Shown piece after piece: positions 9,739-31,279 of a DNA stretch of 64,000 nucleotides; the stretch's first letter is position 1; each line of letters starts with the position of its first letter. Made by a program: the position numbers and the translations under genes. The notes under the pieces were generated by a model. It had not been told where the DNA came from. It searched no databases and was given only the letters and a program-made list of their open reading frames with translations. Source of the DNA: an uncultured archaeon (GTDB lineage: Archaea > Iainarchaeota > Iainarchaeia > Iainarchaeales > JAAZKV01); contig CAZKBG010000001.1 of NCBI GenBank assembly GCA_964551375.1, forward strand, positions 757,150 to 821,149, written 5' to 3'.

Positions 9739-10389
9739 ATGTTTGGCAGAAGAGGGCAGGGCACAATAGAATACCTTGTAATTATTGCAGTTGTGATAGT
9801 TTTAGCGCTTGTTGTTTCTTATTTTATGATGGGCTCGCTTGGCTCGGCTTCAGCAGCAGAAAAGGCGAGTCTTAAAGCAGCTTGGCAGTCAAAAGAAGTG
9901 GGAATTGCTGATTTTGCAGTTGATTCAAGCGGAAGCGGAAAAATCGCATTGATGAACAACTCTGGCGAATTTGTGAGAATAAAGAAAGTTTATGTTGAAG
10001 GAGTGCTTGTTTATGACGGAACGCTTTCACTTGGAAATTTTGACAAATATGTAGTGGGCTCTTTTGCAAGCAATGTCGCAGCGTGCAGTGCGGACAGAAG
10101 ATATAGAATAAGAATAGTTTACGAGGCTGAAAGCGGGCTTGAAGATGAAGTGAGCGGAGATTTGTACCCAGAATGCATGGCAAGCGCATCACAAATAAAC
10201 ACTTTGCTTTTAAGCATCCCAAATATTGACTCAAACATAAATATCGACTTGAATGTATCAACAGGACTTTTAGGACTTGCAAACTCACAGGCAGTGAATA
10301 CAAGAAACCTTGACAATATTTCACAAGGCTCATCCCCAGACTCAAATGTAAAATATGACACTAATGTTGTGACATTAAATACAGTGTGA
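9739..10389 (+). CDS. pilin-like protein with class III (type IV prepilin-like) signal peptide
   Basis: N-terminus MFGRRG|QGTIEYLVIIAVVIVLALV. A short basic leader is followed by Q+1 and E+5, then a hydrophobic helix (DUF361-like archaeal pilin motif). The stop lies 4 nt before the start of the first giant gene. Confidence 0.7.
   Translation: MFGRRGQGTIEYLVIIAVVIVLALVVSYFMMGSLGSASAAEKASLKAAWQSKEVGIADFAVDSSGSGKIALMNNSGEFVRIKKVYVEGVLVYDGTLSLGNFDKYVVGSFASNVAACSADRRYRIRIVYEAESGLEDEVSGDLYPECMASASQINTLLLSIPNIDSNINIDLNVSTGLLGLANSQAVNTRNLDNISQGSSPDSNVKYDTNVVTLNTV
9764..10184 (+). repeat. direct repeat copy A (5' two-thirds of pilin gene); about 88% identical to 30620-31044
   Basis: Visible long identical runs shared by the two copies, e.g. 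ttttatgatgggctcgcttggctcggcttcagcagcagaaaaggc and aactctggcgaatttgtgagaataaagaaagtttatgttga. Confidence 0.8.
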
Positions 10390-10393
10390 GTTT

Positions 10394-13300
10394 ATGGGTT
10401 ATTCTAAATTTTTATTGGCTTTTATATTTATTCTTTTTTTGACAAATGTTTTTTCAGTAGACATTTCCACATGCGCTGATTTATACAATATGGCTGAATC
10501 TTCAAGCTCATTTACCGTTACAACCAATATTGACTGCGCAGCATATACAGCCGCGGGAGATAAATTTGGAAACGCAATAAATTTTTACGGAACGCTTGAC
10601 GGAGGAAACTATACTATAAGCAATATTTATGTAAATGCTCCAGGGGCAGATTATGTCGGAGGAATATTTAGAACAGTAAACAGTGTCAGCAATTTAACTC
10701 TTCAAAATGTAAAAATATATGCAAGCAACAGAAGCTATGTCGGGGGGCTTGCGGGACAATCAAGCGGAACAATAACAAATGTCACAGTAAGAGACTCAAA
10801 TATTTTTGGAAACAACTTTGCAGGAATAGTTGTGGGAAACTCTTTAGGACAGGTGCTGAATTCGTCAGTTTATGATTCAAATATTTCCGCAAACCACGCA
10901 GTTGGAGGAATGGTCGGCAGAGTATATCATAACATGCTGAATCCAAGAGTAAGCAATGCGATAATCAACGGAGTTGGGGATGCTTCAAATGCATATGGAG
11001 TGGGGGGAGTTGTTGGAACAATAGACACAACAAATAGAAGAATAGATTTGAATGATTCAGTTGTGTCGCTTGGAAATTTATACGGAACATACTTTGTGGG
11101 CGGAGCAGTAGGGGTGGCAACATGCTATTACTGCTCAAATCCAGTAACAATGAACCGAATCACAGTTAATGCAAATCAAATAACCGGAAATCAATACGTG
11201 GGCGGGCTTGCCGGGCACTTTCCATTGCCAATAACAATAACCGATTCAAACGCCACAGTGACTCAAATTACAGGAGACCGAGCAAATTCAGGCTCAATAG
11301 GAGGGCTTGTAGGGTACGCAAATGTTGTGGGGAGCAATTTATCCTTCACAGGAAATATTTCAATAAATTCCTCAGGCAGCACAACAGGGTATATCGGCGG
11401 GCTTGTCGGAAGAATTGATTCAGGCTCAATAAGAAACGCAAAAGCAGATGTAAACATTGACACTACGCTTGGCTCGGTAACAATGGATAATGTCGGCGGA
11501 ATTTTGGGATTTGATAATTCAAATACAACAATTACCGACGCAAACGTAGTCTTTGGCGTAATAAAAGGAAAAAATTCTGTCGGCGGAATTGCAGGAAATA
11601 TTACAACTTCAATTGTTCGAACAAGAGTTACCGGAACAACACTTACCGGGGTAGGCGCTGATACTTATTATGGGACTGGCGGAGTTGCGGGAACTGCAAG
11701 AGCCGACAGCAGAAGAATTGATTTGAATGACTCAGTTGTTAACATTACTACTATTAACGGAACAAGATTTACTGGGGGAATAGTCGGAGTGGGGTGGTGT
11801 TATTACTGCTCTAATCCAACAAATGTTTTCAACTCTTCTTTTACAGGCTCTGCTTTGAACGGTTATCAGTTTGCTGGAGGAATCGCAGGATATCTACCAA
11901 GCGGAACATCCCTAATTTCAAACTCAACGGCAAGAATTCCTCAAATGACTTTTTCAGGCTCTGACCCTTACTATTCAGGCGGAGTGGGAGGAGCAGTAAT
12001 TAACATAACTAATTCAAATTTTATTGGAAATATTGACGTAAGCAAATCTTCCAACACAGGAAGCGGATACTTTGGGGGAATTGCAGGACAGGCAAATTCA
12101 ATCTCAGACTCATGGGCTGACACAAATCTTAACTTAATGCTCGGAACATATGCGAGTAATTATGTCGGCGGGCTCGTTGGAAATTACACAGGAAATATTA
12201 CTTCCAGCTATGCAAAAGTCCACCATATTTGGGAACCAAGCACTTCAAACGGGACAAACATAGGGGGGCTTGCAGGGCAGGGGGCTACTGCGGGCGGATA
12301 CATAATAGACTCAAATGTAACTTTTAATGATATTAACGGAGGAAACAGCGTAGGAGGGCTTGCAGGATATACTCAAGGAAATATTTTGCGAACAAAAGTA
12401 ATTGGAAACACTTTAAGCGGAACAGGCGCCGATTCATATTATGGTGTCGGCGGGCTTGTCGGAACAATAAGAGCCGACAGCGGAAGAGTTGACCTAAATT
12501 ATGCAAATGTAAATATTACTACAATTAACGGAACAAGATTTACGGGCGGAATTGTGGGAGCTGGATGGTGTTATTACTGCTCATACACAACAAATGTATT
12601 TAACTCAACTTTCACAGGCTCTGCTTTGAACGGTTATCAGTTTGCTGGAGGAATCGCAGGATGGCTTCCAAGCGGCGCATCAAAAATATATGATTCAAAT
12701 GCGCGAATTACAAGAATTTATCTTTCAGGTTCCAACCCATATTATTCAGGAGGAGTTGGCGGACAGGCATATGATATAAACAATGCAAATTTTATAGGAC
12801 TAATTGAGGTCAACAAATCTTCCAACTCAGGAGACGGATACTTTGGAGGACTTGCGGGACACGCAAACAGTATTTCATATTCCTGGGCTGACACAAACCT
12901 TAACCTTCATCTTGGAGCATATGCGAGTAATTATGTCGGCGGGCTCGTTGGAAATTATACTGGAAACATTGACCACAGCTGGGTTAGGGTTCATCATATT
13001 TTTGAGCCTGCAACAAGCAATGGCGGAAGAGTGGGAGGACTTGCAGGGCAGGGGGCTACTGCGGGCGGATATATTTCTGATTCGAACGCCGTGTTTACTG
13101 ATATTAACGGTGGAAATGATGTTGGAGGGCTTGTTGGTTATGCGCAGGGAAATATTTTAAGAAATAAAGTTACTGGAACAAATGTTAGAGGGACTGGTTA
13201 TTTAGACGGTTATAGTTTGTATGGTGTTGGCGGATTAGTTGGAACAATGCAGGCAGGAGCGCGCTCCGATGTAAATGATAATGTTGTTGATTTGAATTCG

Positions 13301-16300
13301 GTTGTTGCTACAAGTGGTGCCGGCGGACTAGTCGGCTCGCAGTATTGTTACAGCTGTTCTTCAAGCTACTGGATGGGAGTAAATAGATCTAAGGCTGATT
13401 TGAACTGGCTGATTGGGACTACGCACGTGGGCGGCTTAGTCGGACACATTCCGCTTACAGCAAGTTTTATTGCCGACTCAAACGCAAGGATTGTAAAAAT
13501 TTTGGCCACAGGTTCCGACCCATATCACATTGCAGGACTAGCAGGAGCAAATGCAGGAGACATTATCAGGTCAAATTTTGTTGGAGAAATTGATGTTAGA
13601 AAAACAAGCGGAAGCGGAAACAACGGATACATTGCAGGACTTTCAGGGTCAGTTAGAAATATTTATTCCTCATGGGCTGATACAAATATTAACATAATGC
13701 TTGGAACTTTTTCCACAAACTATGTCGGCGGATTAACAGGATACTATTCAGGAAATATTACTTCAAGCTGGGCAAGGGTTCACCATATTTGGGAGCCTGC
13801 AACAAGTAACGGCGGAAGAGTGGGAGGACTTGCAGGATATGGGGCTACTGCGGGCGGATATATTTCTGATTCGAACGCAATGTTTACTGATATTAACGGT
13901 GGAAATGATGTCGGAGGGCTTGTTGGTTATGCGCAGGGAAATATTTTGAGAAATAAAGTTACTGGAACAAATGTCCGCGGCGCAGGACTTGCTGATGGGT
14001 ACAGTGTATATGGTGTTGGCGGTTTAGTTGGAACTATGCAATCAGGAGCGCGCTCTGATGTAAATGATAATTCAGTTGATTTAAATAGTGTCAGCGGAAC
14101 AACGGGTGTTGGCGGGTTAGTGGGTTCGCAGTATTGTTACAGCTGTTCTTCAAGCTACTGGATGGGAGTAAACCGTTCAAGCGTTCGGTTAAATTTTTTG
14201 TCTGGAACAAATTATATTGGCGGAATTTTTGGGCACGCTCCATTGACAGGGACATTTATTTCTGACTCAAATGCAAGAATTCCAAAGATTACTGCTTCAG
14301 GAACAGACCCATATCACGTTGGGGGATTATGCGGACAAACAGAAGGAGATGTGATAAGGTCAAACTTTATTGGAGAAATTGATATTAGAAAAACAAGCGG
14401 GAGCGGGAATAACGGATACATTGCAGGACTATGCGGAGCAGTAAGAAATATTTCTTACTCGTGGGCTGATACAAACATTAACATTCTACTTGGGGGATAT
14501 TCAACAAATTATGTCGGCGGATTAACAGGGTGGCTCAGAGGAAATATGACTTACAGCAATGCAATACTTGGGCATATTTGGGAACCTGCAACTTCAAACG
14601 GCGGAAGAGTAGGCGGATTAGTAGGGCAAGTAGCAGTAGCAGGCGCAAGCATTTCAGATTCAAATGTTATTTTTGTTGATATTAACGGGGGAAATGATGT
14701 TGGGGGGCTTGTTGGTTATGCGCAGGGAAATGTTCTAAGGAGCAAAGTAACTGGAGTAAATGTTCGAGGCACAGGACTTGAAGATGGTTATAGTTTGTAT
14801 GGTGTCGGCGGTTTGGTTGGGACTATGCAGTCAGGCGCGCGTTCTGATGTAAATGATTGTTCAGTTGATTTGAATAGTGTAGTGGGACTTGCAGGAGTTG
14901 GAGGAATAGTCGGCTCTCAGTATTGTTATAGTTGTTCTTCAAGCTACTGGATGGGAGTAAATAGAAGCGTTGCAAGAATTAATTCATTAATCGGAGCCAA
15001 ATACACAGGCGGAATTTTTGGGCACGCTCCATTAACAGGAAGTTTTGCAGCAGATTCAAATGCAATAATTACAAGAATTTACGCGGCGGGGAGCGACACT
15101 TATAATATTGGGGGAGTAGTAGGCGCAAACGCAGGAGATGTTATGCGCTCATATTTTATTGGAACAATTGATGTAAGCAAATCTTCAAACACTGCTAACG
15201 GCGGAATTGGAGGAGTTGCAGGGTCAGTGCGAAATGTATACCAATCCTACGCAGACACAAATATTGATTTTACATTAGGGAATTATTCAGGAAACAGCGT
15301 TGGGGGAGTTGCAGGAAGCGCGGTTACAATAAATGACTCCTACGTTAGAGCAGCTTATATTAAATCAACGCGCTCGGGCTCATATACAGGAGGACTTGTT
15401 GGGTACGCTCAAGGAAATATTAATCACTCATACGCGGCAGTTGCCGATGTAAATGGATATTCATCAGTTGGAGGGCTTGTGGGATACTTTACAAGCTCTT
15501 ACACGGTTTCAAATTCATTCTTTGTGGGAAAAGCAAAAGCATCAAGCTCGGTTGATAATAATATTTTAGCAGGCGCAAACGGAAGCGTATCAAACTGCTA
15601 CTTTAACAACACAGGCTCAAGCGTTGTTTACAAATTAAATGCGGGCTCAACAACAGAACAAGACCCAAACGCGGGCTCATCATTTTTCAAAGGCAATTCT
15701 ACAAACCCTCCATTTGGAGCGGGAGTAGGCGACTGGAATTTTAGCGGAATATGGTATGTGTGGTCAAACGATTATCCTAAATTTGTTAAAAAACTGGCTT
15801 ATTACACAAGCGGAATATTCATTTCTCCAGCAATCAATCTTGGCACCCCAAAAAGATTTGTTTCATTCGACTTCAACGGCAATTTTCCGAACGGAACAGA
15901 TGTAAATTTCCAAATAAGAACCGCTGACTCAAACTCAAATCTTTCAAGCGAAGACTGGGTGGGGCCAAATGACAGCACAAGCGAATATTACAACAGCACA
16001 AGCACAAAAGCAATAACAACCGCGCATGATTTTGATTCATGGATGCAATGGAGAGCAAAACTTTATACAAACGACGAAATAATCACTCCTACAATTTACT
16101 ACGCTGATGTAAACACAGTGGGAATAGGAAGCGTAATATGGTATGGACTATCTGACGGGGCGCAGTGGAGCTCGTTTGATTATAATGTGGTATCAACAAA
16201 CGGCGGAAGCGTTGACTGGTTCTACGGGCCGTCAACAACAGGTCCATGGACTGCGACATCAATGCTTCTTAGCGGACAAAATGTTATAGGGATAAAAGCA

Positions 16301-16378
16301 GTAGCAAGCGCTTCAATTGACGCAAATACTCCAAATATAAGCCCTGATTTGAACGTGTCTTACTCAAGACAAAACTAA
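10394..16378 (+). CDS. giant secreted GLUG-repeat surface protein (1994 aa)
   Basis: Signal peptide MGYSKFLLAFIFILFLTNVFS. N-terminal conserved module (I-S-x-C-x-x-L...NIDC...G-T-L-D-G-x-x-Y-x-I-x-N-I). Dozens of YVGGLxG / VGGLVGY GLUG-type units arranged in about 260 aa super-repeats. Diverged copy of the C-terminal domain shared with the three downstream paralogs. Confidence 0.8.
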   Translation: MGYSKFLLAFIFILFLTNVFSVDISTCADLYNMAESSSSFTVTTNIDCAAYTAAGDKFGNAINFYGTLDGGNYTISNIYVNAPGADYVGGIFRTVNSVSNLTLQNVKIYASNRSYVGGLAGQSSGTITNVTVRDSNIFGNNFAGIVVGNSLGQVLNSSVYDSNISANHAVGGMVGRVYHNMLNPRVSNAIINGVGDASNAYGVGGVVGTIDTTNRRIDLNDSVVSLGNLYGTYFVGGAVGVATCYYCSNPVTMNRITVNANQITGNQYVGGLAGHFPLPITITDSNATVTQITGDRANSGSIGGLVGYANVVGSNLSFTGNISINSSGSTTGYIGGLVGRIDSGSIRNAKADVNIDTTLGSVTMDNVGGILGFDNSNTTITDANVVFGVIKGKNSVGGIAGNITTSIVRTRVTGTTLTGVGADTYYGTGGVAGTARADSRRIDLNDSVVNITTINGTRFTGGIVGVGWCYYCSNPTNVFNSSFTGSALNGYQFAGGIAGYLPSGTSLISNSTARIPQMTFSGSDPYYSGGVGGAVINITNSNFIGNIDVSKSSNTGSGYFGGIAGQANSISDSWADTNLNLMLGTYASNYVGGLVGNYTGNITSSYAKVHHIWEPSTSNGTNIGGLAGQGATAGGYIIDSNVTFNDINGGNSVGGLAGYTQGNILRTKVIGNTLSGTGADSYYGVGGLVGTIRADSGRVDLNYANVNITTINGTRFTGGIVGAGWCYYCSYTTNVFNSTFTGSALNGYQFAGGIAGWLPSGASKIYDSNARITRIYLSGSNPYYSGGVGGQAYDINNANFIGLIEVNKSSNSGDGYFGGLAGHANSISYSWADTNLNLHLGAYASNYVGGLVGNYTGNIDHSWVRVHHIFEPATSNGGRVGGLAGQGATAGGYISDSNAVFTDINGGNDVGGLVGYAQGNILRNKVTGTNVRGTGYLDGYSLYGVGGLVGTMQAGARSDVNDNVVDLNSVVATSGAGGLVGSQYCYSCSSSYWMGVNRSKADLNWLIGTTHVGGLVGHIPLTASFIADSNARIVKILATGSDPYHIAGLAGANAGDIIRSNFVGEIDVRKTSGSGNNGYIAGLSGSVRNIYSSWADTNINIMLGTFSTNYVGGLTGYYSGNITSSWARVHHIWEPATSNGGRVGGLAGYGATAGGYISDSNAMFTDINGGNDVGGLVGYAQGNILRNKVTGTNVRGAGLADGYSVYGVGGLVGTMQSGARSDVNDNSVDLNSVSGTTGVGGLVGSQYCYSCSSSYWMGVNRSSVRLNFLSGTNYIGGIFGHAPLTGTFISDSNARIPKITASGTDPYHVGGLCGQTEGDVIRSNFIGEIDIRKTSGSGNNGYIAGLCGAVRNISYSWADTNINILLGGYSTNYVGGLTGWLRGNMTYSNAILGHIWEPATSNGGRVGGLVGQVAVAGASISDSNVIFVDINGGNDVGGLVGYAQGNVLRSKVTGVNVRGTGLEDGYSLYGVGGLVGTMQSGARSDVNDCSVDLNSVVGLAGVGGIVGSQYCYSCSSSYWMGVNRSVARINSLIGAKYTGGIFGHAPLTGSFAADSNAIITRIYAAGSDTYNIGGVVGANAGDVMRSYFIGTIDVSKSSNTANGGIGGVAGSVRNVYQSYADTNIDFTLGNYSGNSVGGVAGSAVTINDSYVRAAYIKSTRSGSYTGGLVGYAQGNINHSYAAVADVNGYSSVGGLVGYFTSSYTVSNSFFVGKAKASSSVDNNILAGANGSVSNCYFNNTGSSVVYKLNAGSTTEQDPNAGSSFFKGNSTNPPFGAGVGDWNFSGIWYVWSNDYPKFVKKLAYYTSGIFISPAINLGTPKRFVSFDFNGNFPNGTDVNFQIRTADSNSNLSSEDWVGPNDSTSEYYNSTSTKAITTAHDFDSWMQWRAKLYTNDEIITPTIYYADVNTVGIGSVIWYGLSDGAQWSSFDYNVVSTNGGSVDWFYGPSTTGPWTATSMLLSGQNVIGIKAVASASIDANTPNISPDLNVSYSRQN
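11030..15600 (+). repeat. intragenic tandem super-repeat array (about six copies, 771-790 bp period, one CxxC motif per copy)
   Basis: Copy starts near 11044, 11701, 12472, 13262, 14051 and 14838. Near-identical stretches such as gatattaacggtggaaatgatgt...gggcttgttggttatgcgcagggaaat occur at about 13098, 13887 and 14683. Protein-level repeats RSDVNDNxVDLNSV...GSQYCYSCSSSYWMGVNRS. Confidence 0.85.
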
Positions 16379-16399
16379 ATAACTTAATAGACTAAATTT

Positions 16400-16420
16400 A
16401 AGGCTTTTTTAGCCTTTTGT
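16400..16420 (+). terminator. hairpin plus T-run after giant gene 1
   Basis: aaggct ttttt agcctt followed by ttgtt. Confidence 0.4.
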
Positions 16421-16443
16421 TATATAAAATAAGTAGTGAAAAA

Positions 16444-17256
16444 ATGGAAAATTTAATTGTAATAAAACTTGGCGGTTCGTCAATTACAAAAAAAGCCGAA
16501 GGAAAATTTGAAATGAACGAAACTGTTTTAAAAAGCGCAGCAAAACAAATTTCCCAAGCTCTCAAATCCGATAATTCTCTTAAATTAATTCTTGTGTGCG
16601 GAGTGGGACCGTTTGGGCACACAAATGTAGTAAAATACGATTTGAATAATGGGATAAAAACAAGCGCGCAAGAAAAAGGAGTGGAAGTGACAATTAAGGA
16701 CTGCAATTTTGTTGCTGAATCAGTTATGGACGCGCTGGAAAACGAAGGACTGAAAACTGAACACGTTCCAGGATATCTTGTGTGCAAACAAGACGGAAGA
16801 AAAGTAATTTCATTTGACGCAGAGCCTTATACTAATGCAGTTGAGAAAGGAATAATTCCAGTAACAACAGGAATAATGGTAAAAGACAAGTCGCTTAAAT
16901 GGAGCGTGATGAGCGGAGATGCTGCAATTGCGCAAATTACAATGAGACTCATTCCAAAAAAAGTAGTGATAGGAACAGATGTTGACGGAATATTCACAGG
17001 CGACCCAAAAGAAGACAAAAAAGCAAAACTAATTGAAGAAATTTCAAATACAAATCTTGAAAGCGTACTAAAAAAAGCGACAAACTCAAAAGCAGTGGAT
17101 GTAACCGGCGGAATGAAAGGAAAACTTGAAAAATTAGCAGAAACACTCAACGGAACAGAATGCCAGATTTTCAATCTTTTCACTGACGGAAATTTAAAAA
17201 AAGCGCTTCTTGGAGAAAAAATGACTTCCACCAAGCTTAAAATTTGGATTAATTAG
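16444..17256 (+). CDS. ipk: isopentenyl phosphate kinase (amino-acid kinase family)
   Basis: N-terminal IVIKLGGSSITKK, then a GVGPFGH motif. Amino-acid-kinase fold hallmarks. ATG at 16444; the ORF track starts at 16417 inside the upstream hairpin. Confidence 0.8.
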   Translation: MENLIVIKLGGSSITKKAEGKFEMNETVLKSAAKQISQALKSDNSLKLILVCGVGPFGHTNVVKYDLNNGIKTSAQEKGVEVTIKDCNFVAESVMDALENEGLKTEHVPGYLVCKQDGRKVISFDAEPYTNAVEKGIIPVTTGIMVKDKSLKWSVMSGDAAIAQITMRLIPKKVVIGTDVDGIFTGDPKEDKKAKLIEEISNTNLESVLKKATNSKAVDVTGGMKGKLEKLAETLNGTECQIFNLFTDGNLKKALLGEKMTSTKLKIWIN

Positions 17257-21233: not shown

Positions 21234-24200
21234 ATGATGGCAAATTTTAACAAATTACTTTTAGGGATCTTATTAATTTTAATAATAAGTCAGGTTTTTG
21301 CATTTAGCGGCGGAACTGGAACAAGCGGAGACCCTTACAGAGTAAATGCCTGCGCAGATATTGACTGGATGGATACTAATGCATCTACAAAATCAGCATA
21401 CTATGTTCTTGATTCAAATGTGGACTGCGGAGTATCGCCTTATAATACAGGAAGCGGGTTTACTCAAGTAACAGGATTTGCAGGATCGCTTGACGGACAA
21501 GGATACTGGGTAAAAAACTTAATGATTTACCTTCCAACAACAAATAATGTTTCACCATTTGCTGCAGGAAGCGCGTTCACAATAAAAAATATTGGATTTG
21601 ATGTAAATATCACAGGACAGGATTATGTATCCGGATTCATGACTGATTATTTGAATAGGGACTTAAATAACATAAAAGTAAGCGGAACAATAATAGGGAG
21701 AAATTATGTGGGCGGAATTACATCAAGAAGCAATGCGGGAATAAAAATCACAAACAGCTCTGTTGACTTGACTTTGATAAGCGGAAATGAATATGTAGGG
21801 GGACTTGCCGCATACTATGGAGGGGATTTCAATTACTGCACAATAAAAATAAACCGAATAGAAGGGCAGTTTTCTGTGGGCGGAGCAAGCGGATGGATGT
21901 TTAATGGAAGCAATGGAGTGTCCTATATTCAAAATACAACTGCTGACATAAACCTACTAAAAGTAACACACACTTCAGCTAATGGCTATTACACTTTAGT
22001 CGGAGGATTAGTCGGAAGATTTTCTTCAAGCGGATTTATAAGAAGCGCAAATGTGCGAGTAAATTTAATTGATGTCAATAATGCGACTGCAGACCCTGGA
22101 AAAATAGGGGGGCTTGTCGGAGGACATGACCGCGCAGGCGGATATCTTTATGATGTAAATTTTACAGGAACAATAAATTATCGAAACACATCTGGGGCAG
22201 CGTACCTTGGGGGAATTGTGGGGCACGAGGAATCAGGGCCAATTACTTATTCCCGCGCGGATATTAACATTGACACAAATCTTAGCTCAGCAAGCGGAAC
22301 ATATGTAGGCGGAATTATTGGAAGCTCAAGTTATGATTTGAATAATATTTATGTTAATTCATCATACATTTATGCAGCGGGCACAAATGGAAATTATGTC
22401 GGAGGAGTGGGCGGCTCTTCAAGCGCAGTTTATAACGCGGTGGCTGATATTGGAGAAGTAAGAGGATTAAGCCAAGTCGGCGGGCTGCTTGGAGGCTCAG
22501 GAATTGCAGCAGGAGTAATATCTTCAAGATTAAATGCAAAAACAATTGTCGGAACAACCACCGAAATAGGCGGATTTATCGGATACGCAAAAGGGGACGT
22601 AAATTACTGCGATTCGAACGTTCAAATCTTAATTGGCTCTCAATATGTTGGAGGGCTTCTTGGAAATTCATTCAATCAAAGCGATGCAAGCTCAAAAGTT
22701 TATATGACTAATAGTTATGTTCGGGACATGAATGTAACAAATCCAACAAGCGTGGGCGGGCTTGTGGGGCGATTTTCAGGAAGAAGAGTGGAACGTTCTT
22801 TTGCGGAAGTAAAAAGACTATATGTTGATAATTCAGTCGGAAACGACGCGCTCATCGGAGGGCTGATTGGACAAACTGGATACTCTGACTGGACAATAAG
22901 AGACTCAAATTCACGAGCGCAGATAGATTACACTTACAGCGGAGCATCAAACAATAGTTATATTGGAGGAATTGCAGGAAATACTGGAACTCCTATAAGC
23001 GGATGCAGGGCAGATGTAAATATTGATGCTGATTTAGGCACAAAAGCTCCAAATTATGTGGGCGGGATTACTGGAAAATCAACCGGCACAATAACAAACT
23101 CTCACGCAAGCGGAGCTTACATAAAAGCAAAAAATAGCGGAGGCACTGGGGTAGGAGTGGGCGGAATTAGCGGAAGCTCATACACAGTATATAATTCAAC
23201 TTCAAATTTTATTGATATAAACGGAAACCTTAATGTTAGCGGAATCAGCGGAAACCTTGCTATTGGGGATGTGAACGGCTCAACTGCAACAATAAGCGGA
23301 ATACTTTACGGAAAATACAATATCGGCGGAGCAGTAGGAAACGGAGCAAATAATTCAGTAGCAGTATTTAATTCAGGCGCAACAATAAACAAAATATATG
23401 CTGATAATTCAACAGCAAATGATATGTCTGTAGGTGGAGTGGTGGGGGTTATTACAAATGCAAGAACAGTAACTGGTTGCTGGGCAAGGATTGGAACAAT
23501 TTATGCAAAAAATACGAGCGCATCAAACACTGGCGGAGTGGGAGGAGTTGCGGGATATGTTTATCAAAACTCAAACAATGCCCCGATGAGAGATTCAAAC
23601 GCAATAGTTTCACTAATACAATATGAAAGCACAAGCACAGGAGATGCATTTGTTGGAGGACTGGCTGGGAGACAAATGGGGCTTGTATCAAATTCTTGGG
23701 CGGATGTAAATATTGACGCGTCAATTGGAACATACACTGGCGGATATGTGGGCGGGCTTGTCGGGTACGCATATGGGGTAGTATCAAATTCGTGGGCAAG
23801 AGGAAATTATATTAAAGCAACAAAAACAAATTCGCAATATGTTGGCGGACTTGTGGGAAGATCTACTGGGATAACAAATTCCTATTCAATATTTTCTGAT
23901 ATAAACGGGCTGACAAAAGTGGGCGGGCTTGGGGGATACTCAAGCGGAGCGGTGCTTGACTCAAATTCAGTTTTAAATAGCGTTAATGGGACAAGCAATG
24001 TTGGCGGATTAATTGGACTCGGAGATTCTGATGTTAACAGGTCAAAAACAATAATTGGCACAATAACTGGGACAATGCTTGTGGGGGGAGTAATAGGCGA
24101 ATTATCCAACAGCTCCACATTTATGTATGATTTAAGCGCGGATGTAAATTTAATAAAAGTAACACACACAGCAGGCGGACAAATTAATGCAGGGGGAATA

Positions 24201-25811
24201 ATCGGGCTTGCAACAAACACAAAAGGAATGAGACAAGCTGCTGCGAGAATTAAATTAATGGATATAAATAATTCAAGCGGAAGCGATGCAGGCGGAATTG
24301 GAGGAATTGCGGGATATTTGTATCACAATGCAAATACAGCACAACTCTTAGACGCAAATTCAACAGTTCAAATAAATTACACAAACTCAAGCACAGGCGC
24401 AGGATATATCGGGGGAGTAGTTGGGTTGCATAATGGATATATTTCAAACTCTTGGGCTGACTCAAATATTAATGCAGAACTTGGAACAAGAAGCGGAACT
24501 TATGTCGGCGGACTTGCGGGAAATGCTGCAAGTTATATTTCAAATTCATATTCGACAGGCGGGAATATCCTCGCATCAAAGACAGGTGGGGGATATGTTG
24601 GTGGACTTGCTGGAAGAATTGGCGGAGCAGCAACAAATGTCTACGCACTCTACAATGACGTCAACGGAGTTGACTATACTGGAGGACTTATAGGAAGCGG
24701 GCAAGGCGCAGTAAATACATACACAATAAATCGAACAGTGTATGGTGCAGATAGAGTAGGGGGATTAATCGGCTATTCCAGAGGGGATATAAACACTTCC
24801 TACTCAGGAGATGCAAATGTAATTGGAAGCACAAATGTAGGGGGAATAACAGGATACTATGATCCGCCCGGAACAACATATCACATAAATAATTCATTTA
24901 CAACAACAAGAGTAACAGGAAGTTCAGTAACAGGCGCAGTAACAGGATATGTAGTAACATACAGCTGGCCTTCGCCTCCAGTAGTAAACACATACTACAC
25001 TTTCGGCTCGGCAGCGGCTGGAAGAGGGACACTTGAAAGCGATGGACCATCATATTTTAAAGGAAAAGGAAAAACACTTCTTGGAATAACCCAAGGAACT
25101 TCCCCAAAACACCCTTATGCAAATCCTGATGCAAATTGGAATTTTAATTACACAGGGCACCCTGGGCTTTGGTACGGCTGGCAGTTAAGCTACCCGCATT
25201 TTACAACAGACCCTATTGTTACTTATGTTCCTAATGGAGAATATCAATCAAGAGCAATTGATTTAAGCTCAATGAAAAAATGCATCGCGCTAACTACAAA
25301 CATGATAAAACCTACTGACAGCAATATCAAAATCCAAATACAAGTTGCTGATAATAATACTTCATGGTGGGCATCTCCAAACTGGATGGGGCCTGACGGG
25401 ACAGACAATACTTATTATTCAAACGGAAGTTATTCAATTCCTGACATTAATGCTGATGGAAATTGGATAAGATGGAGAGCAGTATTCACTTCCTCAAGCG
25501 ACAGCTTAACTCCAACTCTAATAAGCATTGACTTTAACTGCATACCAATAGGGGAAATGGTGTTAATTGCGAATGGAAATAATCTTAACTGGAGAGGGAT
25601 AGCTTACAATGCGATAACCGGCGGAATAAACGGCTCGCTTGAGTGGCTTTACAAAATAGGAAGCGGAAATTGGGATTCAATTGATAATAATTCCTTCCCT
25701 GCGCTAACCACTGGAACTCCTCTTTATATTAAAGCAATAATGACTGGAACAATAGATTCCAATGGACCAATAATGGATAATAATATTGTTTTATCCTACC
25801 GCCCTAATTAA
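21234..25811 (+). CDS. giant secreted GLUG-repeat surface protein (1525 aa)
   Basis: Signal peptide MMANFNKLLLGILLILIISQVFAFS. N-module GDPYRVNACADIDWM...VDCGVSPYNTGSGFTQVTGFAGSLDGQGYWVKNL. GLUG units. Conserved C-terminal domain. Confidence 0.8.
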   Translation: MMANFNKLLLGILLILIISQVFAFSGGTGTSGDPYRVNACADIDWMDTNASTKSAYYVLDSNVDCGVSPYNTGSGFTQVTGFAGSLDGQGYWVKNLMIYLPTTNNVSPFAAGSAFTIKNIGFDVNITGQDYVSGFMTDYLNRDLNNIKVSGTIIGRNYVGGITSRSNAGIKITNSSVDLTLISGNEYVGGLAAYYGGDFNYCTIKINRIEGQFSVGGASGWMFNGSNGVSYIQNTTADINLLKVTHTSANGYYTLVGGLVGRFSSSGFIRSANVRVNLIDVNNATADPGKIGGLVGGHDRAGGYLYDVNFTGTINYRNTSGAAYLGGIVGHEESGPITYSRADINIDTNLSSASGTYVGGIIGSSSYDLNNIYVNSSYIYAAGTNGNYVGGVGGSSSAVYNAVADIGEVRGLSQVGGLLGGSGIAAGVISSRLNAKTIVGTTTEIGGFIGYAKGDVNYCDSNVQILIGSQYVGGLLGNSFNQSDASSKVYMTNSYVRDMNVTNPTSVGGLVGRFSGRRVERSFAEVKRLYVDNSVGNDALIGGLIGQTGYSDWTIRDSNSRAQIDYTYSGASNNSYIGGIAGNTGTPISGCRADVNIDADLGTKAPNYVGGITGKSTGTITNSHASGAYIKAKNSGGTGVGVGGISGSSYTVYNSTSNFIDINGNLNVSGISGNLAIGDVNGSTATISGILYGKYNIGGAVGNGANNSVAVFNSGATINKIYADNSTANDMSVGGVVGVITNARTVTGCWARIGTIYAKNTSASNTGGVGGVAGYVYQNSNNAPMRDSNAIVSLIQYESTSTGDAFVGGLAGRQMGLVSNSWADVNIDASIGTYTGGYVGGLVGYAYGVVSNSWARGNYIKATKTNSQYVGGLVGRSTGITNSYSIFSDINGLTKVGGLGGYSSGAVLDSNSVLNSVNGTSNVGGLIGLGDSDVNRSKTIIGTITGTMLVGGVIGELSNSSTFMYDLSADVNLIKVTHTAGGQINAGGIIGLATNTKGMRQAAARIKLMDINNSSGSDAGGIGGIAGYLYHNANTAQLLDANSTVQINYTNSSTGAGYIGGVVGLHNGYISNSWADSNINAELGTRSGTYVGGLAGNAASYISNSYSTGGNILASKTGGGYVGGLAGRIGGAATNVYALYNDVNGVDYTGGLIGSGQGAVNTYTINRTVYGADRVGGLIGYSRGDINTSYSGDANVIGSTNVGGITGYYDPPGTTYHINNSFTTTRVTGSSVTGAVTGYVVTYSWPSPPVVNTYYTFGSAAAGRGTLESDGPSYFKGKGKTLLGITQGTSPKHPYANPDANWNFNYTGHPGLWYGWQLSYPHFTTDPIVTYVPNGEYQSRAIDLSSMKKCIALTTNMIKPTDSNIKIQIQVADNNTSWWASPNWMGPDGTDNTYYSNGSYSIPDINADGNWIRWRAVFTSSSDSLTPTLISIDFNCIPIGEMVLIANGNNLNWRGIAYNAITGGINGSLEWLYKIGSGNWDSIDNNSFPALTTGTPLYIKAIMTGTIDSNGPIMDNNIVLSYRPN

Positions 25812-25905: not shown

Positions 25906-28900
25906 TTGAAAGTGAACTTTGTGAAAATTATGAAAAAAATAATTCTTGCGCTGATTATTTTATGTATTTCAGCAACTGTATTTTCAATAAACATCTCCGA
26001 CTGCACAGGGCTTCAATCAATGAGCGGCGCAAACAGTTACACTTTGACTGGGAATATTGACTGCACTGCGACAAATACTTGGAACAGCGGAGCGGGATTT
26101 GCGCCAATAACTTCCTTCACTGGAACGCTTAACGGCGCAGGATACACGATAAGGGGATTGTATATTAATAGAACTGGATCAAACAGTCAGGCGCTAATCG
26201 GGACAAGCACAAATGCCACATTAACAAATATTGTTTTTGAAGACGCTAATATTGCAATGTACAATTACGGAGGAGTGCTTCTTGCAAATGGGAGCGCAAC
26301 AATATCAAATATTACTGTAAGAAATTCAATTATACGCTCGGTGGGAAATGTTGGGTATGTTGGAGGAATTGCGGGAAATTATACCGGCGGGCAGTTTACA
26401 AACAGCTCAATTTATGGCTCAGTGGTAAGCGGACCAGGGTATGTCGGAGGATTGATTGGAAAATTCGGAATGGCTTCAAATAACGCTTCAATAGACATAA
26501 ATGACTGTTATGCGGATTTAAATTCAGTTACTTCAAGCGGGGATTATGTTGGCGGAATAGTGGGACAGCTCACAAATACTGGGACAGGAACTTTGAGTTC
26601 AATCAACCGCTCAACAGCAGTAGTAAGAACTTTGTTTGGATACTCCTATGTCGGAGGAATTGTGGGCTCTCACGTTGGGGCTGGCGGAACAATTTCTGAT
26701 GTTAATATAACTTTAAGCAGCTGGAGTCTTCGAGGCTCAAGCTTTGCGCGAATAGGTGGAATAGCAGGAAACTTGGCTGGAACTTTGACAAGATCATTTG
26801 CAATAATAAATCTTGATATCAATAACACCTCCGCATCAGGAGATTATGTCGGAGGGCTTGTCGGTTACGGATTAGGCTCCACAATTTCAGATTCATACGC
26901 TGATGTAAATATTGACACTACAATAAGCAATGCAGAAAGAGTAAATGCATATGTTGGAGGAATTGTGGGTTATGGGAGCAATATTTATCGTTCATACGCG
27001 CGAGGATACAAATTATACTCCGGACAATACACTGGAATGTATGTCGGAGGGCTTGCCGGAAGACTTGACGGAAATATTTCAGACTCAAACGCAACATTTA
27101 CCTCAATAATCGGAGGAGGCGGATATTATGGAGACGGATATGTCGGCGGACTTGTGGGATACTTTCACGGAAATTATATAATACGAAGCAAAGCAACAGC
27201 AAATTTAGTTAAAGTGACAAGAGCAAATTCAGTTGCCAATTATGCAGGCGGATTAATAGGGGGAATATCAACAGCAGGAAATAAAGACATTAACAACTGC
27301 ACAGTGGATGTAAATAATGTTGAAGGATTTAGAACAAGCAATGGAAGTGATTCAGGAATTAGCGGATTAATAGGATTTGTAGCAAATGTTGCCGGAATTC
27401 ACGTATCAATAAATCAAACTTCTGTTCGGTCAAAATTACTTTACGCAACAGGAGATGGAATCGGCGGATTTATTGGGTACATGGTTAACTCTTCGGGCTC
27501 GCTAACAATAACAGATTCAAACGCAACAATTGAAAGAATACACTTATACGGCGGAGCAGGATACGGGTATGTCGGCGGGCTAATAGGAAGAGCATCAGTT
27601 GGAAGAGCAAACATAACAAACTCATTTGCAATATCCCAAATAGATATTAATCTTCCATCAAGCTCAAATGGCCTTGGATATGTCGGCGGACTTGCAGGCG
27701 CGATTGGGACAGGAAATGTTTCGGATTCATGGGCTGACACAAATGTAAATGGAAACTTTAACACCTATTCTCCAAGGTATGTCGGCGGGTTAATTGGAAG
27801 CGCTGATGTTAATTTAATCAGAACATATGCAAGAGGAACTTATCTTGACGCAAACAAAAGCGGAGGATATTATGTTGGGGGACTTGCAGGAGCATGCTCA
27901 TGGAATGTAACTGATTCAAACGCAACTTTTGAAAGAATAGACGGCAGCGGCTCATATTACGGAGACGCATATATTGCAGGGCTCGTTGGAAGTTTTACAG
28001 GAAATTATATTTTAAGAAGCAAAGCAATAGTAACTTCAATAACCGCGCCAACCTATCCAACTAACTTTGTTGGAGGCTTAGTCGGAGGAATTGGAGTAGC
28101 AGGAAATAAGGATATTAATTATTGCAGCGCGGATGTAAATATAATTTCAGCAACAAAAACAAGCAACGGCTCAACAACAGGAGTAGGTGGGTTAATAGGA
28201 TTTGTGGCAAATGTTGCAATCAATTTATCAATAAATAATTCATCCGCTCGAACAGGGACTATTTATGGAATAGGAGACGGGCTTGGGGGATTACTTGGAT
28301 ATATGGTCAGCTCATCAGGCTCATTAAAAATAATTGATTCAAACGCAATTACTGACAGAATATATTTTTACGGGGGCGGAGGGAGTGGATACTTTGGCGG
28401 TCTTGCAGGAAGAGCCTATGCTGGCAGAGTAGATATAAATAATTCATTTGCAATTTCTCAAATAGATGTTAACGCAACAGCAGGTCTTGATTATGTCGGA
28501 GGGTTAGCAGGAGAGGCATCTTTATCAGGACTAATATACAACTCATGGGCTGACACAAACATTAACGGCTCGTTTGGAACATATTCTCCGGGAAATGTTG
28601 GAGGGCTTTTTGGCTCGGCAGATGTAAATATAATTCAATCATATGCGCGAGGAAATTATATAAAAATAACCAAAGCAAACGGCTCAAATGTGGGCGGATT
28701 TGCCGGAAAATTATCAGGAGATGTTTTGGATTCAAATGTTGTGTTTGTTGATATTAATGGAAGCAGTTCCTCATATGGTTATGGATATGTGGGCGGGTTT
28801 GTCGGATATTATACAGGCGGGTATATTTTAAGAAGCAAAGTTAATGCAGTACATGTCACTGGATACAGGGCAGACTCGCTAACGGATAAAGTAGGAGGGT

Positions 28901-30537
28901 TTATTGGATATGTTAGGTCAACAAAAGCCACTGACATAAACGACTGCTTTGTCACAGTAACTGCAGTGCGCGGATACAAAAATAACAACGGCAGCAGCTC
29001 AAATGTGGGCGGATTAATCGGAGACTCATACGGTTCATATCCTTTAACAATAAATCATTCATTTGTAAATGCAGATTTAATCAGCGCAACCTCATCAGAA
29101 GTAGGCGGCTTAGTCGGGAATTCAAACAGATCTCCGTTAGTTATAATGGACTCAAACGCAGTGGTCAGACAAATAGTTGTTACTGGGACTCCGGGAAGAA
29201 TTGGGGGGCTTGTTGGAAGCGCATCAACAAACTCTTTAATTACAAATACTTACGCTTCATCAAATTTAATTTTAAGCAATTCCTCAGTATCGCCAGCTTA
29301 TTACGGAGGGCTAATCGGACACATTGGAGGAGGGCTTGTGACAAAATCATACGCTGACACTAATATTGATGCAACAATTGGGGCTTATTCAGGCTCCCAA
29401 ATAGGCGGATTAATCGGATACTCTGCCGCGCAGATACTAAACACTTATGCGCACTCAGGGTACATAATGGCAACAAAATCCTACGGCTCAAGAATTGGGG
29501 GGCTTGTAGGACACCTTGACTCAACAGTGACAAACTCTTATGCAATAGTCGACACTGATGTAAACGGAGTGGATAACATTGGAGGGGTGGCAGGATATGT
29601 TGGAAACACATACTCAGTTAATAATTCATTCTTTGTTGGAAGAGCAAAAGCAACAAGCACTCCTGATAACAATATTGTTGGAAATGCCTCCGCATCTAAT
29701 GTAGTTAATTGTTATTTTTACAAAACAGGAGCTGCTTCAGTGTGCAGCCAAAGCGGAACAACAGTAACCTGTGGAATAGACAATCCTTCTATGACTGATT
29801 ATTTTAAAGGCAAAACAAGCACAATCAGATTAAGAGCTCCTTTCTCCGGCGGGGCAGTGGATTGGAATTTTAATTACACAGGACACGCAGGAGTATGGTA
29901 CGGGTGGTACAGAGATTATCCTCACTTTATACTTGACCCAACTACGCCGCATGTGCCTGTCGGAGAATACAAATCAGTTCCGTTAGAATTAGCAACTGCA
30001 AAAAAATGCCAGTATATTGATTTTAATTTTGTGCAGGTGGGAAACTCTGATGTGAATATACAGATACAAATCGGAGATTTAAACGCTGCAATGTGGGATG
30101 ATTCAAACTGGTTCGGACCGGACGGCACAAGTTCAACAGCATATACTTTAACAAGCGACAAAAATATTCCATCCTCAAAAGGAAACGGCAAATGGATAAG
30201 ATGGAAAGCAATGCTTTACGCTTCAACAGAAGGCGAAACCCCTGCGTTAAAAAGCGTTGACTTTAATTGTATACCAATAGGCGAAATGGTTTTAGTAGCA
30301 AATGCAGACCTTGCTACCTGGTATAGAATTGATTATAATGAAATATTTTCAGGAACACACGGCACAGTTGACTGGCTGTATAATGTTGGATTTGGATGGG
30401 GAACAATAACACTCAATTCATTCCCTCCCGCAATTATGGGAAGCCCGCTTTATTTGAAAGCAAAAATAGCGGGAAGGGCGGATTCAAATGTTCCGGCAAT
30501 TGACAACAATATTATGGTCGCATATAGGGTAAATTAG
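25906..30537 (+). CDS. giant secreted GLUG-repeat surface protein (about 1535-1543 aa)
   Basis: The ORF-track start at 25906 is TTG; the first ATG at 25930 gives MKKIILALIILCISATVFS. N-module INISDCTGLQSM...IDCTATNTWNSGAGFAPITSFTGTLNGAGYTIRGL. GLUG units with internal duplications. Conserved C-terminal domain. Confidence 0.8.
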   Translation: MKVNFVKIMKKIILALIILCISATVFSINISDCTGLQSMSGANSYTLTGNIDCTATNTWNSGAGFAPITSFTGTLNGAGYTIRGLYINRTGSNSQALIGTSTNATLTNIVFEDANIAMYNYGGVLLANGSATISNITVRNSIIRSVGNVGYVGGIAGNYTGGQFTNSSIYGSVVSGPGYVGGLIGKFGMASNNASIDINDCYADLNSVTSSGDYVGGIVGQLTNTGTGTLSSINRSTAVVRTLFGYSYVGGIVGSHVGAGGTISDVNITLSSWSLRGSSFARIGGIAGNLAGTLTRSFAIINLDINNTSASGDYVGGLVGYGLGSTISDSYADVNIDTTISNAERVNAYVGGIVGYGSNIYRSYARGYKLYSGQYTGMYVGGLAGRLDGNISDSNATFTSIIGGGGYYGDGYVGGLVGYFHGNYIIRSKATANLVKVTRANSVANYAGGLIGGISTAGNKDINNCTVDVNNVEGFRTSNGSDSGISGLIGFVANVAGIHVSINQTSVRSKLLYATGDGIGGFIGYMVNSSGSLTITDSNATIERIHLYGGAGYGYVGGLIGRASVGRANITNSFAISQIDINLPSSSNGLGYVGGLAGAIGTGNVSDSWADTNVNGNFNTYSPRYVGGLIGSADVNLIRTYARGTYLDANKSGGYYVGGLAGACSWNVTDSNATFERIDGSGSYYGDAYIAGLVGSFTGNYILRSKAIVTSITAPTYPTNFVGGLVGGIGVAGNKDINYCSADVNIISATKTSNGSTTGVGGLIGFVANVAINLSINNSSARTGTIYGIGDGLGGLLGYMVSSSGSLKIIDSNAITDRIYFYGGGGSGYFGGLAGRAYAGRVDINNSFAISQIDVNATAGLDYVGGLAGEASLSGLIYNSWADTNINGSFGTYSPGNVGGLFGSADVNIIQSYARGNYIKITKANGSNVGGFAGKLSGDVLDSNVVFVDINGSSSSYGYGYVGGFVGYYTGGYILRSKVNAVHVTGYRADSLTDKVGGFIGYVRSTKATDINDCFVTVTAVRGYKNNNGSSSNVGGLIGDSYGSYPLTINHSFVNADLISATSSEVGGLVGNSNRSPLVIMDSNAVVRQIVVTGTPGRIGGLVGSASTNSLITNTYASSNLILSNSSVSPAYYGGLIGHIGGGLVTKSYADTNIDATIGAYSGSQIGGLIGYSAAQILNTYAHSGYIMATKSYGSRIGGLVGHLDSTVTNSYAIVDTDVNGVDNIGGVAGYVGNTYSVNNSFFVGRAKATSTPDNNIVGNASASNVVNCYFYKTGAASVCSQSGTTVTCGIDNPSMTDYFKGKTSTIRLRAPFSGGAVDWNFNYTGHAGVWYGWYRDYPHFILDPTTPHVPVGEYKSVPLELATAKKCQYIDFNFVQVGNSDVNIQIQIGDLNAAMWDDSNWFGPDGTSSTAYTLTSDKNIPSSKGNGKWIRWKAMLYASTEGETPALKSVDFNCIPIGEMVLVANADLATWYRIDYNEIFSGTHGTVDWLYNVGFGWGTITLNSFPPAIMGSPLYLKAKIAGRADSNVPAIDNNIMVAYRVN

Positions 30538-30595
30538 CGGATTAGAAAGGATTAAAAAGAATCAAAACATTATCTTTGAAAAGGTTTGATACAAA

Positions 30596-31279
30596 ATGCA
30601 TGCAAAAAAAAGGGGACAGGGAACAATTGAATACCTTGTTATAATAGCGGTTGTAATTGTGCTTGCATTAGTAACATCATATTTTATGATGGGCTCGCTT
30701 GGCTCGGCTTCAGCAGCAGAAAAGGCTTCGTTAAAAACAGCATGGCAGACAAAAGAAGTGGGAATTGCCGATTTTGCAGTTGATTCAGACGGAGCGGGAA
30801 AAATTGCCATAATGAATAACTCTGGCGAATTTGTGAGAATAAAGAAAGTTTATGTTGACGGAGTGCTTGTTTATGACGGAACGCTTTCACTTGGAAATTT
30901 TGATAGATATGTAGTGGGTTCTTTTGCTGAAAATGTGACTTCTTGCAGCGCGGACAGAAGATACAGTATAAGAATAATTTACGAGGCTGAAAGCGGGCTT
31001 GAAGATGAAGTGAGCGGAGACTTGTACGCAGAATGCATGGCAAGATTGAATGAAGGCGCGCTAAGATTCTTGCAGTTAACCGACGCGAATTTGAGTCTTG
31101 GGGACACAATCAACGTTTCAGCAGCAACAGGATACTTTACTTTAATTGACGCCAACTTTGTGAACTCAAGAAGCATAACTTATGGAAATGAAGGCTTTGG
31201 AGAGTACGGCGGCGTTGATTTAAACACAACAAGAAACACCGATAACAACTATATAGAACTTGACGTACAAGCTGAATAA
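30596..31279 (+). CDS. pilin-like protein with class III signal peptide; paralog of 9739-10389
   Basis: MHAKKRG|QGTIEYLVIIAVVIVLALV. The first roughly 145 aa are nearly identical to the upstream pilin-like protein; the C-terminus has diverged. Confidence 0.7.
   Translation: MHAKKRGQGTIEYLVIIAVVIVLALVTSYFMMGSLGSASAAEKASLKTAWQTKEVGIADFAVDSDGAGKIAIMNNSGEFVRIKKVYVDGVLVYDGTLSLGNFDRYVVGSFAENVTSCSADRRYSIRIIYEAESGLEDEVSGDLYAECMARLNEGALRFLQLTDANLSLGDTINVSAATGYFTLIDANFVNSRSITYGNEGFGEYGGVDLNTTRNTDNNYIELDVQAE
30620..31044 (+). repeat. direct repeat copy B (pairs with 9764-10184)
   Basis: See copy A. The two copies bracket about 20.8 kb. Confidence 0.8.

Follow-up and report, generated by a model that had tools for sequence, protein, structure and literature searches.

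The subject of this analysis is a 64,000-nucleotide (nt) window from the genome of an uncultured archaeon (assembly GCA_964551375.1, contig CAZKBG010000001.1), and within it the interval 9739-31279, where two type IV pilin-like proteins and four giant secreted GLUG-repeat proteins are encoded. The gene content is archaeal, and the pilin is carried on a single contig of 946 kb, which points to a small genome. Every sizeable open reading frame (ORF) in the interval lies on the + strand, in the order pilA, G1, an isopentenyl phosphate kinase gene, G2, G3, G4, pilB. An earlier, sequence-only reading of the same DNA had placed these ORFs correctly, both in coordinates and in strand, and had described four consecutive same-strand giants in an island bracketed by pilins. 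The giants are indeed on one strand, but they are not consecutive, because the isopentenyl phosphate kinase gene separates G1 from G2. The region is two cassettes of opposite gene order, pilA followed by G1 and G2-G3-G4 followed by pilB, with a housekeeping gene between them. The picture of a pilin-bracketed island does not hold, since the two cassettes sit among housekeeping operons at positions that are syntenic in two related loci, L001 and L004.

The pilin-like proteins are encoded by pilA (9739..10389, + strand; 216 amino acids, aa) and pilB (30596..31279, + strand; 227 aa), the latter 58 nt past G4, and are 68% identical (E 4e-101). Both carry a class III signal peptide in which R/K-G-QGTIEYL is followed by a hydrophobic helix. 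The processing motifs, with a slash at the predicted cut, are RRG/QGTIEYL in pilA, or more fully RRG/QGTIEYLVIIAVVIVLALV, and KRG/QGTIEYL in pilB. Both have a Glu at position +5, and no variation of the motif is seen in an alignment of the family. The Pfam model PF04021 (Class_IIIsignal) scores 29.9 bits for pilA and 31.2 bits for pilB against a gathering score of 23.7, while both fall below the cut-off of Pilin_N (PF07790). Two paralogous class III pilin-like genes with a QGTIEYL motif had been proposed, and these scores bear the proposal out. In an AlphaFold2 model of the pilin, a helix at residues 9-32 precedes a beta-sandwich at 54-142 (predicted local distance difference test, pLDDT, 70-88), which is the long N-terminal alpha-helix and beta-sandwich head of a pilin fold; the model resembles archaeal type IV pilins. 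Neither single sequences nor the pilin profile found a match among PDB sequences. The same QGTIEYL N-terminus is also found on pilins of ~155 aa, which in a related assembly (L019) lie within a canonical pilus locus, alongside a single T2SSE ATPase gene and a pair of T2SSF platform genes.

What sets pilA and pilB apart from such short pilins is a C-terminal tail of ~70 aa, which has low confidence (pLDDT) in the model. In pilA the N-terminal helix and the beta-sandwich (aa ~54-142) are followed by a tail at aa ~147-216. Across the family alignment the first 150 residues are almost invariant, and beyond them the proteins fall into three tail classes: class A (pilA, P0002, P0003), class B (pilB, P0007, P0008, P0009) and class C (P0004, P0005, P0006). 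The tail might have derived from a GLUG rung or might imitate one, but this idea was rejected when a hidden Markov model (HMM) of the tail matched nothing in the giants.

The four giants, all on the + strand, are G1 (10394..16378; 1994 aa, 49 GLUG units), G2 (17314..21138; 1274 aa from a GTG start, 27 units), G3 (21234..25811; 1525 aa, 35 units) and G4 (25906..30537; 1543 aa from a TTG start, with an alternative ATG 8 codons further on, 34 units). Units were counted with the regular expression [VIY]GG[LIV]xG and are spaced ~32 aa apart. The Pfam Glug model (PF07581) scores 34.5, 51.0, 36.2 and 63.1 bits for G1 to G4 against a cut-off of 20.5, in agreement with the long GLUG arrays noted earlier in all four. 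A direct-repeat search showed that the units are organised into super-repeats of 771-792 nt, of which G1 has about six (771-789 nt); Tandem Repeats Finder returned no tandem repeats because this period exceeds its limit. Three of the G1 super-repeats contain a near-identical stretch (13322-13387, 14111-14176 and 14900-14965; 89-92% nt identity) encoding GGLVGSQYCYSCSSSYWMGVNR, which holds a CxxC pair; related CYYCS versions occur earlier in G1 and in the L001 giant, and G2-G4 have none.

Each giant begins with a Sec signal peptide, which is its only hydrophobic segment, and the common N-terminal module aligns in all four, as had been claimed. The signal peptides were said to end in (T/V)FS, which is not so for G3, where the end is VFAFS. 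The C-terminal region likewise aligns across the set, and G2, G3 and G4 share a cap followed by two beta-sandwiches; conservation is uneven, however, with 50-62% identity among G2-G4 and only 31% between G1 and G2, G1 having a divergent cap and beta-sandwich domain. Overall the giants are 29-38% identical in pairwise comparison and are therefore old paralogues. NCBIfam, a library that presumably includes PGF-CTERM models, gave zero matches of any kind for G1-G4. On this result and the hydrophobicity profiles, anchoring of the giants by a PGF-CTERM or a transmembrane (TM) segment was rejected, and the earlier statement that they lack a C-terminal TM helix or PGF-CTERM stands. Neither Pfam nor NCBIfam detects a catalytic domain in any of them, and Pfam finds no DUF2341 and no PilY1 beta-propeller. 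Each has 22-47 N-glycosylation sequons.

A profile of the N-module and first repeats matched residues 115-328 of the Streptococcus pneumoniae IgA1 protease chain (7jgj, 6xjb, 6xja; E ~7e-13), a stretch that corresponds to native residues ~779-992 if chain numbering starts at construct residue 665. In our searches of PDB sequences, the GLUG N-module profile alone gave a match. PF05342 (Peptidase_M26_N-like) was undetected in G1-G4 at E<=0.1 and is weak and below cut-off in relatives. Since the solved structure of the IgA1 protease has a beta-helix at 781-1070 (PMC7695701), the match lies inside that beta-helix, so that the GLUG region of the giants is predicted to be a beta-helix and the giants would be long beta-helix rods. 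The giants thus resemble the IgA1 metalloproteases of Gram-positive bacteria (6xja, 6xjb, 7jgj, 7uvl; PMC7695701) in having a homologous N-module and GLUG repeats. They differ from them in being archaeal, in lacking the metalloprotease domain, G5 domains and LPXTG anchor, and in extent, with a helix of 27-49 units as against the ~290-aa beta-helix of the IgA1 protease.

Part of the C-terminal domain proved to be widespread. When 1.84 billion representatives were searched exhaustively with its profile, 1078 relatives came up at E<=1e-3, of which only about a dozen span the whole region. Positions 55-161 of the C-domain alignment A1 (for example G2 aa ~1078-1185) define a beta-sandwich domain of ~105 aa that is widespread, often in tandem, in proteins of 1000-4400 aa, alongside LamG, DUF2341 or FG-GAP. 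No Pfam model covers it, and the present analysis thereby defines an unnamed, widespread domain. A word-indexed homologue search with the C-domain returned one protein only, and a metagenome scan gave five loci, of which only L012 (the L004 contig again) spans the whole domain. A model of the C-domain matched jelly-roll, carbohydrate-binding-module-like folds.

The evidence leans against the C-domain as an anchor. Its absence from pilin-GLUG fusion proteins described below (L010, P0164-P0168) would fit the idea that it is the part that docks on a pilin. That idea was rejected on account of P0134, a protein of 1261 aa which combines a weak N-terminal match to the pilin profile (E 3e-4) with sandwiches of the C-domain type at its C-terminus; because the two occur together in one protein, a distal, ligand-binding role for the C-domain is more likely.

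Further evidence on how pilins and giants relate comes from other genomes. The pilin family is rare, with 13 matches among 5.8 billion proteins; a scan of genome contigs with the pilin profile found three loci only, in two assemblies of uncultured archaea, and a scan of viral contigs found zero. Every homologue whose flanks could be read has as its same-strand neighbour a large repeat protein with a signal peptide, and this holds in several genomic contexts. At L001 a class A pilin precedes a giant 62% identical to G1, with the gene for the small subunit of AcnX (aconitase-X) upstream. At L004, L005, L006 and L012 a G4-like giant (53% identical to G4 at L004) is followed by a class B pilin and then by genes for pyruvate:ferredoxin oxidoreductase (PFOR), and at L007 a class B pilin comes directly after a G2-like giant (65% identical to G2) in a different downstream context. 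At L002 and L003, in an unrelated context, a class C pilin is followed 7 nt later by a signal-peptide protein of glycine-rich repeats (GGAGYGGAGGAGSGAGG; L002 10692-12077, L003 3076-3570). It matches neither GLUG nor any other Pfam model, is cut by the contig end, and seems to represent another type of giant at the same cassette position. Tail class and partner therefore go together in these loci: class A tails have a G1-type giant downstream, class B tails a G2- or G4-type giant upstream, and class C tails the Gly-rich giant.

The same association was seen when the search was started from the giants. Two distant GLUG proteins with the C-domain, P0022 and P0040, were picked solely by their match to the C-domain profile, and in both a pilin of the family lies 5 nt upstream of the giant (215 and 232 aa; HMM E 5.5e-40 and 2.5e-18; PF04021 22.3 and 23.8 bits). 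For a further protein, P0045, with three LamG domains and the C-domain, the abutting upstream gene encodes 214 aa and is known by its length only. As to the pilin-GLUG co-occurrence in related genomes that the sequence-only reading had recommended for study, the adjacency is kept in several contexts and assemblies. Of the two blind-test pairs, the one at L021 4305-21422 (GCA_964534045.1) is a pilin followed by a GLUG giant beside a divergent T2SSE ATPase gene and a gene for an 802-aa polytopic membrane protein; its other flank holds two genes, one whose product resembles exosortases/archaeosortases (PF09721, 1.5e-6) and one for a protein of 2729 aa without a Pfam match.

Pilin and GLUG modules are also found joined in one polypeptide. 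A third pilin-family gene, absent from the sequence-only reading, begins at 63249 (63249..63998, + strand) and is cut by the end of the window, between Orc1/Cdc6 (61931-63181) and that end, with SepF on the minus strand at 61331-61789. Its product has a class III signal peptide (STAQGTIEYLVIMAIVIVIAL), a pilin module that matches the HMM over profile positions 3-155 (E 4.4e-18), a short linker and a GLUG N-module (DPWIINSCAELQDMNNHLDGNYALGGNINC, continuing to GAGFSPIG). In other assemblies P0164, P0165 and P0168 are homologous pilin-GLUG fusions, and an ORF at L010 encodes a single protein with Class_IIIsignal, two copies of Flg_new (the Listeria-Bacteroides repeat), M26_N and Glug. Modular pilins are defined by a pilin and an effector module in a single polypeptide with a short linker; the 63249 gene and the L010 ORF have this architecture, and pilA and pilB do not, since they end in the ~70-aa tail and G1-G4 have Sec signal peptides of their own. 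The tail begins just past a conserved Cys, and the passenger of the fusion proteins begins at the same point. In related archaea the same pilin module was seen with other passengers as well, namely LamG (L010 4398-6335), Fib_succ_major (L020 7058-7845) and DUF1566 (P0169).

Inspection of intergenic sequences suggests how the two cassettes might be transcribed. The first pilin gene was said to stop 4 nt before the first giant, and the gap between the pilA stop and the G1 ATG is exactly that; in homologous pilin/giant pairs the gaps are 5-22 nt. A TATA-like element, ACTTTTAAATAAAG (9697..9710, + strand), ends ~30 nt before the pilA start and is a candidate promoter for a pilA-G1 bicistron, and a hairpin with a T-run, AAGGCTTTTTTAGCCTTTT (16400..16418, + strand), begins 22 nt past the G1 stop and may be a terminator-like end of that unit. 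Each of G2, G3, G4 and pilB has its own TATA-like box 30-50 nt upstream. The promoter-like boxes ahead of G2 (AAAGCTTTTATTTGACTTAA; 17265..17284, +) and G3 (AAAGCTTTTATTTAACTTAA; 21184..21203, +) are near-identical and are the sole two matches in the window. The upstream regions that contain them (17265-17308 and 21184-21228) are almost identical throughout, with AAAGCTTTTATTT[G/A]ACTTAA ~30-50 nt before the start and AAGCAGGGA directly ahead of the start codon in both, so the duplication must have taken in the promoter and the 5′ leader. G4 and pilB have another box in common, AAGGATTAAA, at 25856 and 30547.

The conserved adjacency, the blind test that found a pilin in two of two cases, and the fusions support a functional link between the pilin-like proteins and the GLUG giants. 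We propose that the tailed proteins are minor pilins that act as adaptors presenting Sec-exported beta-helix adhesins on type IV filaments, and we put the probability of this proposal at roughly 0.55. According to this model, pilA and pilB would be made as prepilins that a prepilin peptidase cuts between G and Q (R-G/QGTIEYL, with Glu at +5) and would be taken up by type IV filament machinery encoded elsewhere. The pilin module, helix plus beta-sandwich, would place them in the filament, at its tip, or at least in the membrane, and the ~70-aa tail, which starts where the passenger begins in the fused relatives, would be a partner-specific docking element. G1-G4 would be exported separately via Sec, each folding into a long, rigid GLUG beta-helix rod, very roughly 13-24 nm in length if one 32-aa unit makes one rung, and ending in a cap and then two jelly-roll beta-sandwiches. 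The giant would dock non-covalently on the pilin tail, presumably, by analogy with the fusion proteins, with its N-terminal end proximal and its beta-sandwich end directed outward, where it may bind a ligand that is probably a glycan or another cell's surface. pilA would serve giants of the G1 type, and pilB those of the G2/G3/G4 type, which would have expanded by old tandem duplication.

Several observations weigh against this proposal. The comparative set comprises only ~6-7 assemblies, and several of the compared loci are not independent because they are syntenic. No assembly ATPase, platform protein or prepilin peptidase is encoded among the scanned window ORFs of at least 150 aa. Neither G2 nor G3 comes with its own pilin, and each apparently has a promoter-like box to itself. 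The low pLDDT of the tail may only reflect a shallow alignment of 10 sequences, and the tail profile resembles nothing in the giants. On whether such giants occur elsewhere outside a pilin context, a point raised by the sequence-only reading, the record is mixed: both giants of the blind test have their pilin, and at L011 928-5466 (GCA_964544205.1, the assembly of L001) a giant of ~1500 aa with GLUG repeats and the C-domain has no adjacent pilin. The L011 giant is split into three consecutive ORFs (163, 541 and 680/801 aa) and may be a pseudogene or an assembly error.

The main rival explanation, which we consider unlikely, is that the tailed class III proteins never polymerise and that their N-terminal helix keeps them in the membrane as short anchors for the giants, so that the pilin module would be used much as in a bindosome or a pseudopilus. 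It would account for giants that have no C-terminal anchor, for the absence of assembly machinery among the scanned ORFs, and for the location of cassettes and fusion genes among housekeeping genes and not in pilus loci, and it has precedent in the class III signal peptides of archaeal surface proteins that do not form filaments, such as substrate-binding proteins (bioRxiv 10.64898/2026.04.22.720090). A membrane stalk is harder to reconcile with the L021 cassette, which adjoins a T2SSE ATPase gene, with an N-terminus identical to that of the short pilins in the canonical pilus locus L019, and with the conservation of Glu +5 and of the pilin fold.

It is also conceivable, though we find it distinctly improbable, that the pilins and giants never touch and that their genes are clustered and co-regulated merely as surface-colonisation genes, the giants acting alone, for instance with their C-terminal beta-sandwiches bound to the S-layer or to S-layer glycans. 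The first C-domain sub-domain (positions 55-161), with its 1078 matches, is widespread in large multidomain surface proteins, and the match of the C-domain model to carbohydrate-binding-module-like jelly-rolls would suit such a role, as would the L011 giant that lacks a neighbouring pilin and the separate promoter-like elements of G2, G3, G4 and pilB. Independent action does not readily explain why gaps of 4-5 nt recur in pilin-to-giant pairs of distant assemblies, why pilin and GLUG modules are covalently fused in several genomes, this one included, or why tail class co-varies with partner type. Least probable of all is that the giants are not adhesins but enzymes, or sheath or S-layer components, such as polysaccharide lyase/hydrolase-like or protease-associated beta-helices that breach a host envelope, with the pilins merely delivering or positioning them. 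In its favour, IgA1 metalloproteases are the best-known proteins with a GLUG beta-helix (PMC7695701), and for a cultivated DPANN archaeon it has been proposed that pectin-lyase-like surface proteins with a parallel beta-helix attack the walls of its host (bioRxiv 10.1101/2023.10.27.564410); yet neither Pfam nor NCBIfam detected a catalytic domain in any giant, the IgA1 protease match is confined to the non-catalytic beta-helix, and the C-domain resembles binding modules and not enzymes.

The design proposed here, a tailed pilin that presents a giant adhesin, is most likely an archaeal version of an arrangement known from bacterial pili. Modular type IV pilins have been described in Streptococcus sanguinis, where PilB carries a vWA module and PilC a lectin module (Raynaud et al. 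2021, PMC8179133). As in those proteins, an N-terminal pilin module carries an adhesion module for display on the filament, probably at its tip, and the fused architecture recurs in the 63249 gene, the L010 ORF and P0164/P0165/P0168, where a GLUG beta-helix is the passenger. The survey in PMC8179133 was built on the bacterial IPR012902 signature, whereas the pilin module here is of the archaeal PF04021 type; in addition, pilA and pilB have a ~70-aa tail in place of the passenger, and the beta-helix comes from a separate, Sec-exported gene. In this respect the split pilA/G1 and G2-4/pilB cassettes find their closest functional analogue in CofB-CofJ of the type IVb pili of enterotoxigenic Escherichia coli, which PMC8179133 summarises along with TcpB of Vibrio cholerae; as presented in that summary, a C-terminally extended minor pilin serves as an adaptor for a separately secreted adhesion protein. 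The likeness would be one of function, since there is no relationship in sequence (the pilin profile had no match among PDB sequences), and in contrast to CofB-CofJ the setting is archaeal, the proposed partner is a giant repeat beta-helix instead of something small and globular, and its interaction with the pilin is a prediction.

A second comparison is with the PilY1/PilC tip adhesins and the archaeal adhesin-like proteins, which are also large secreted non-pilins encoded beside pilins and proposed to act in adhesion on the pilus. Large adhesin-like or beta-helical proteins have been described in archaeal type IV filament loci (PMC4858521; bioRxiv 10.64898/2026.04.22.720090), and beta-helical sheets and immunoglobulin (Ig) folds have been noted in them (Makarova et al. 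2016, PMC4858521; Sivabalasarma & Albers 2026, bioRxiv 10.64898/2026.04.22.720090). Those archaeal proteins are encoded within machinery loci, with ATPase and platform genes, whereas the cassettes described here are free-standing among housekeeping genes. Unlike PilY1 and the archaeal adhesin-like proteins, the present system has a dedicated pilin tail and a GLUG-type adhesin with its own C-domain, and no DUF2341 or PilY1 beta-propeller; the likeness to PilY1 and its minor pilins, as to CofB-CofJ, does not extend to sequence. To call the arrangement an undescribed system, as was done initially, was therefore an overstatement, since large adhesin-like or beta-helical proteins of archaeal type IV filament loci, modular pilins, the CofB-CofJ pair and PilY1 were already on record; the specific cassette of tailed pilin and GLUG giant is undescribed in the literature searched. 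That literature held no free-standing cassette of this kind, no tail classes, and no coexistence of split and fused forms.

The cassettes are surrounded by housekeeping operons. Upstream, at 1412-9654, lie genes for a thiolase, a GHMP kinase, a UbiX-like flavoprotein, a UbiD-like decarboxylase and the large and small subunits of AcnX. The isopentenyl phosphate kinase gene, which stands outside the pilin-giant system (16417..17256, + strand; NF040647 IPPK_Arch 1.2e-48, PF00696 1.2e-37), has its probable true start at the ATG at 16444. The genes at 1412-9654 and 16417-17256 together match the gene set of the archaeal mevalonate pathway, into which the pilA-G1 cassette is inserted immediately ahead of the kinase gene, and the same insertion point, from the AcnX small subunit to pilin to giant, is found at L001. 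Downstream of pilB are four PFOR subunit genes. The guanine-plus-cytosine content of the region is 0.38-0.43, against 0.37-0.40 in the flanks; an Rfam scan of the window found no tRNA or other match; the only long direct repeats in the region are the paralogous genes themselves; and no mobility gene occurs among the window ORFs of at least 150 aa scanned against Pfam, not every ORF having been scanned. The idea of a mobile island was rejected on the composition, the synteny and the lack of tRNA or repeat boundaries.

Two further features of the window concern other surface or membrane proteins. An apparent second surface-protein cluster at 50695-60443 (+ strand) begins with a protein of 1824 aa that has a TM segment near its N-terminus and an Ig-like domain (PF24025). 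Next come a 562-aa protein, which has both a signal peptide and a TM helix at its C-terminal end, and a signal-peptide protein of 844 aa; neither of these two has a Pfam match. At 41438-43339 (+ strand) a DUF2207 membrane protein ends in a C-terminal run of ~14 glycines (SGGSSGGGGGGGGGGGGGAG).

How ultra-small archaea hold on to surfaces or hosts is largely unexplained, and giant surface proteins usually come without a known means of attachment. The cassette described here is small, recognisable and searchable in genomes, and it makes a concrete prediction, namely that the tail of the pilin is a binding site for a particular giant beta-helix protein. If this prediction holds, the display of anchorless giants would be explained, and the principle of the pilin as a carrier, known from bacteria, would apply in archaea as well, with the passenger either fused or split off. 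More tentatively, and with odds that we place short of even, we suggest that archaea with small genomes, probably of the DPANN type, have a split modular pilin system in which the tailed pilins are interchangeable sockets and the tail class chooses the giant that is plugged in, be it of the GLUG type, the Gly-rich type or possibly the LamG type, with fused and split versions in one genome. Were this true, such cassettes would provide episymbiotic archaea with a combinatorial, fast-evolving toolkit for attachment to their hosts, and the CofB-CofJ adaptor principle would have its first counterpart in archaea.

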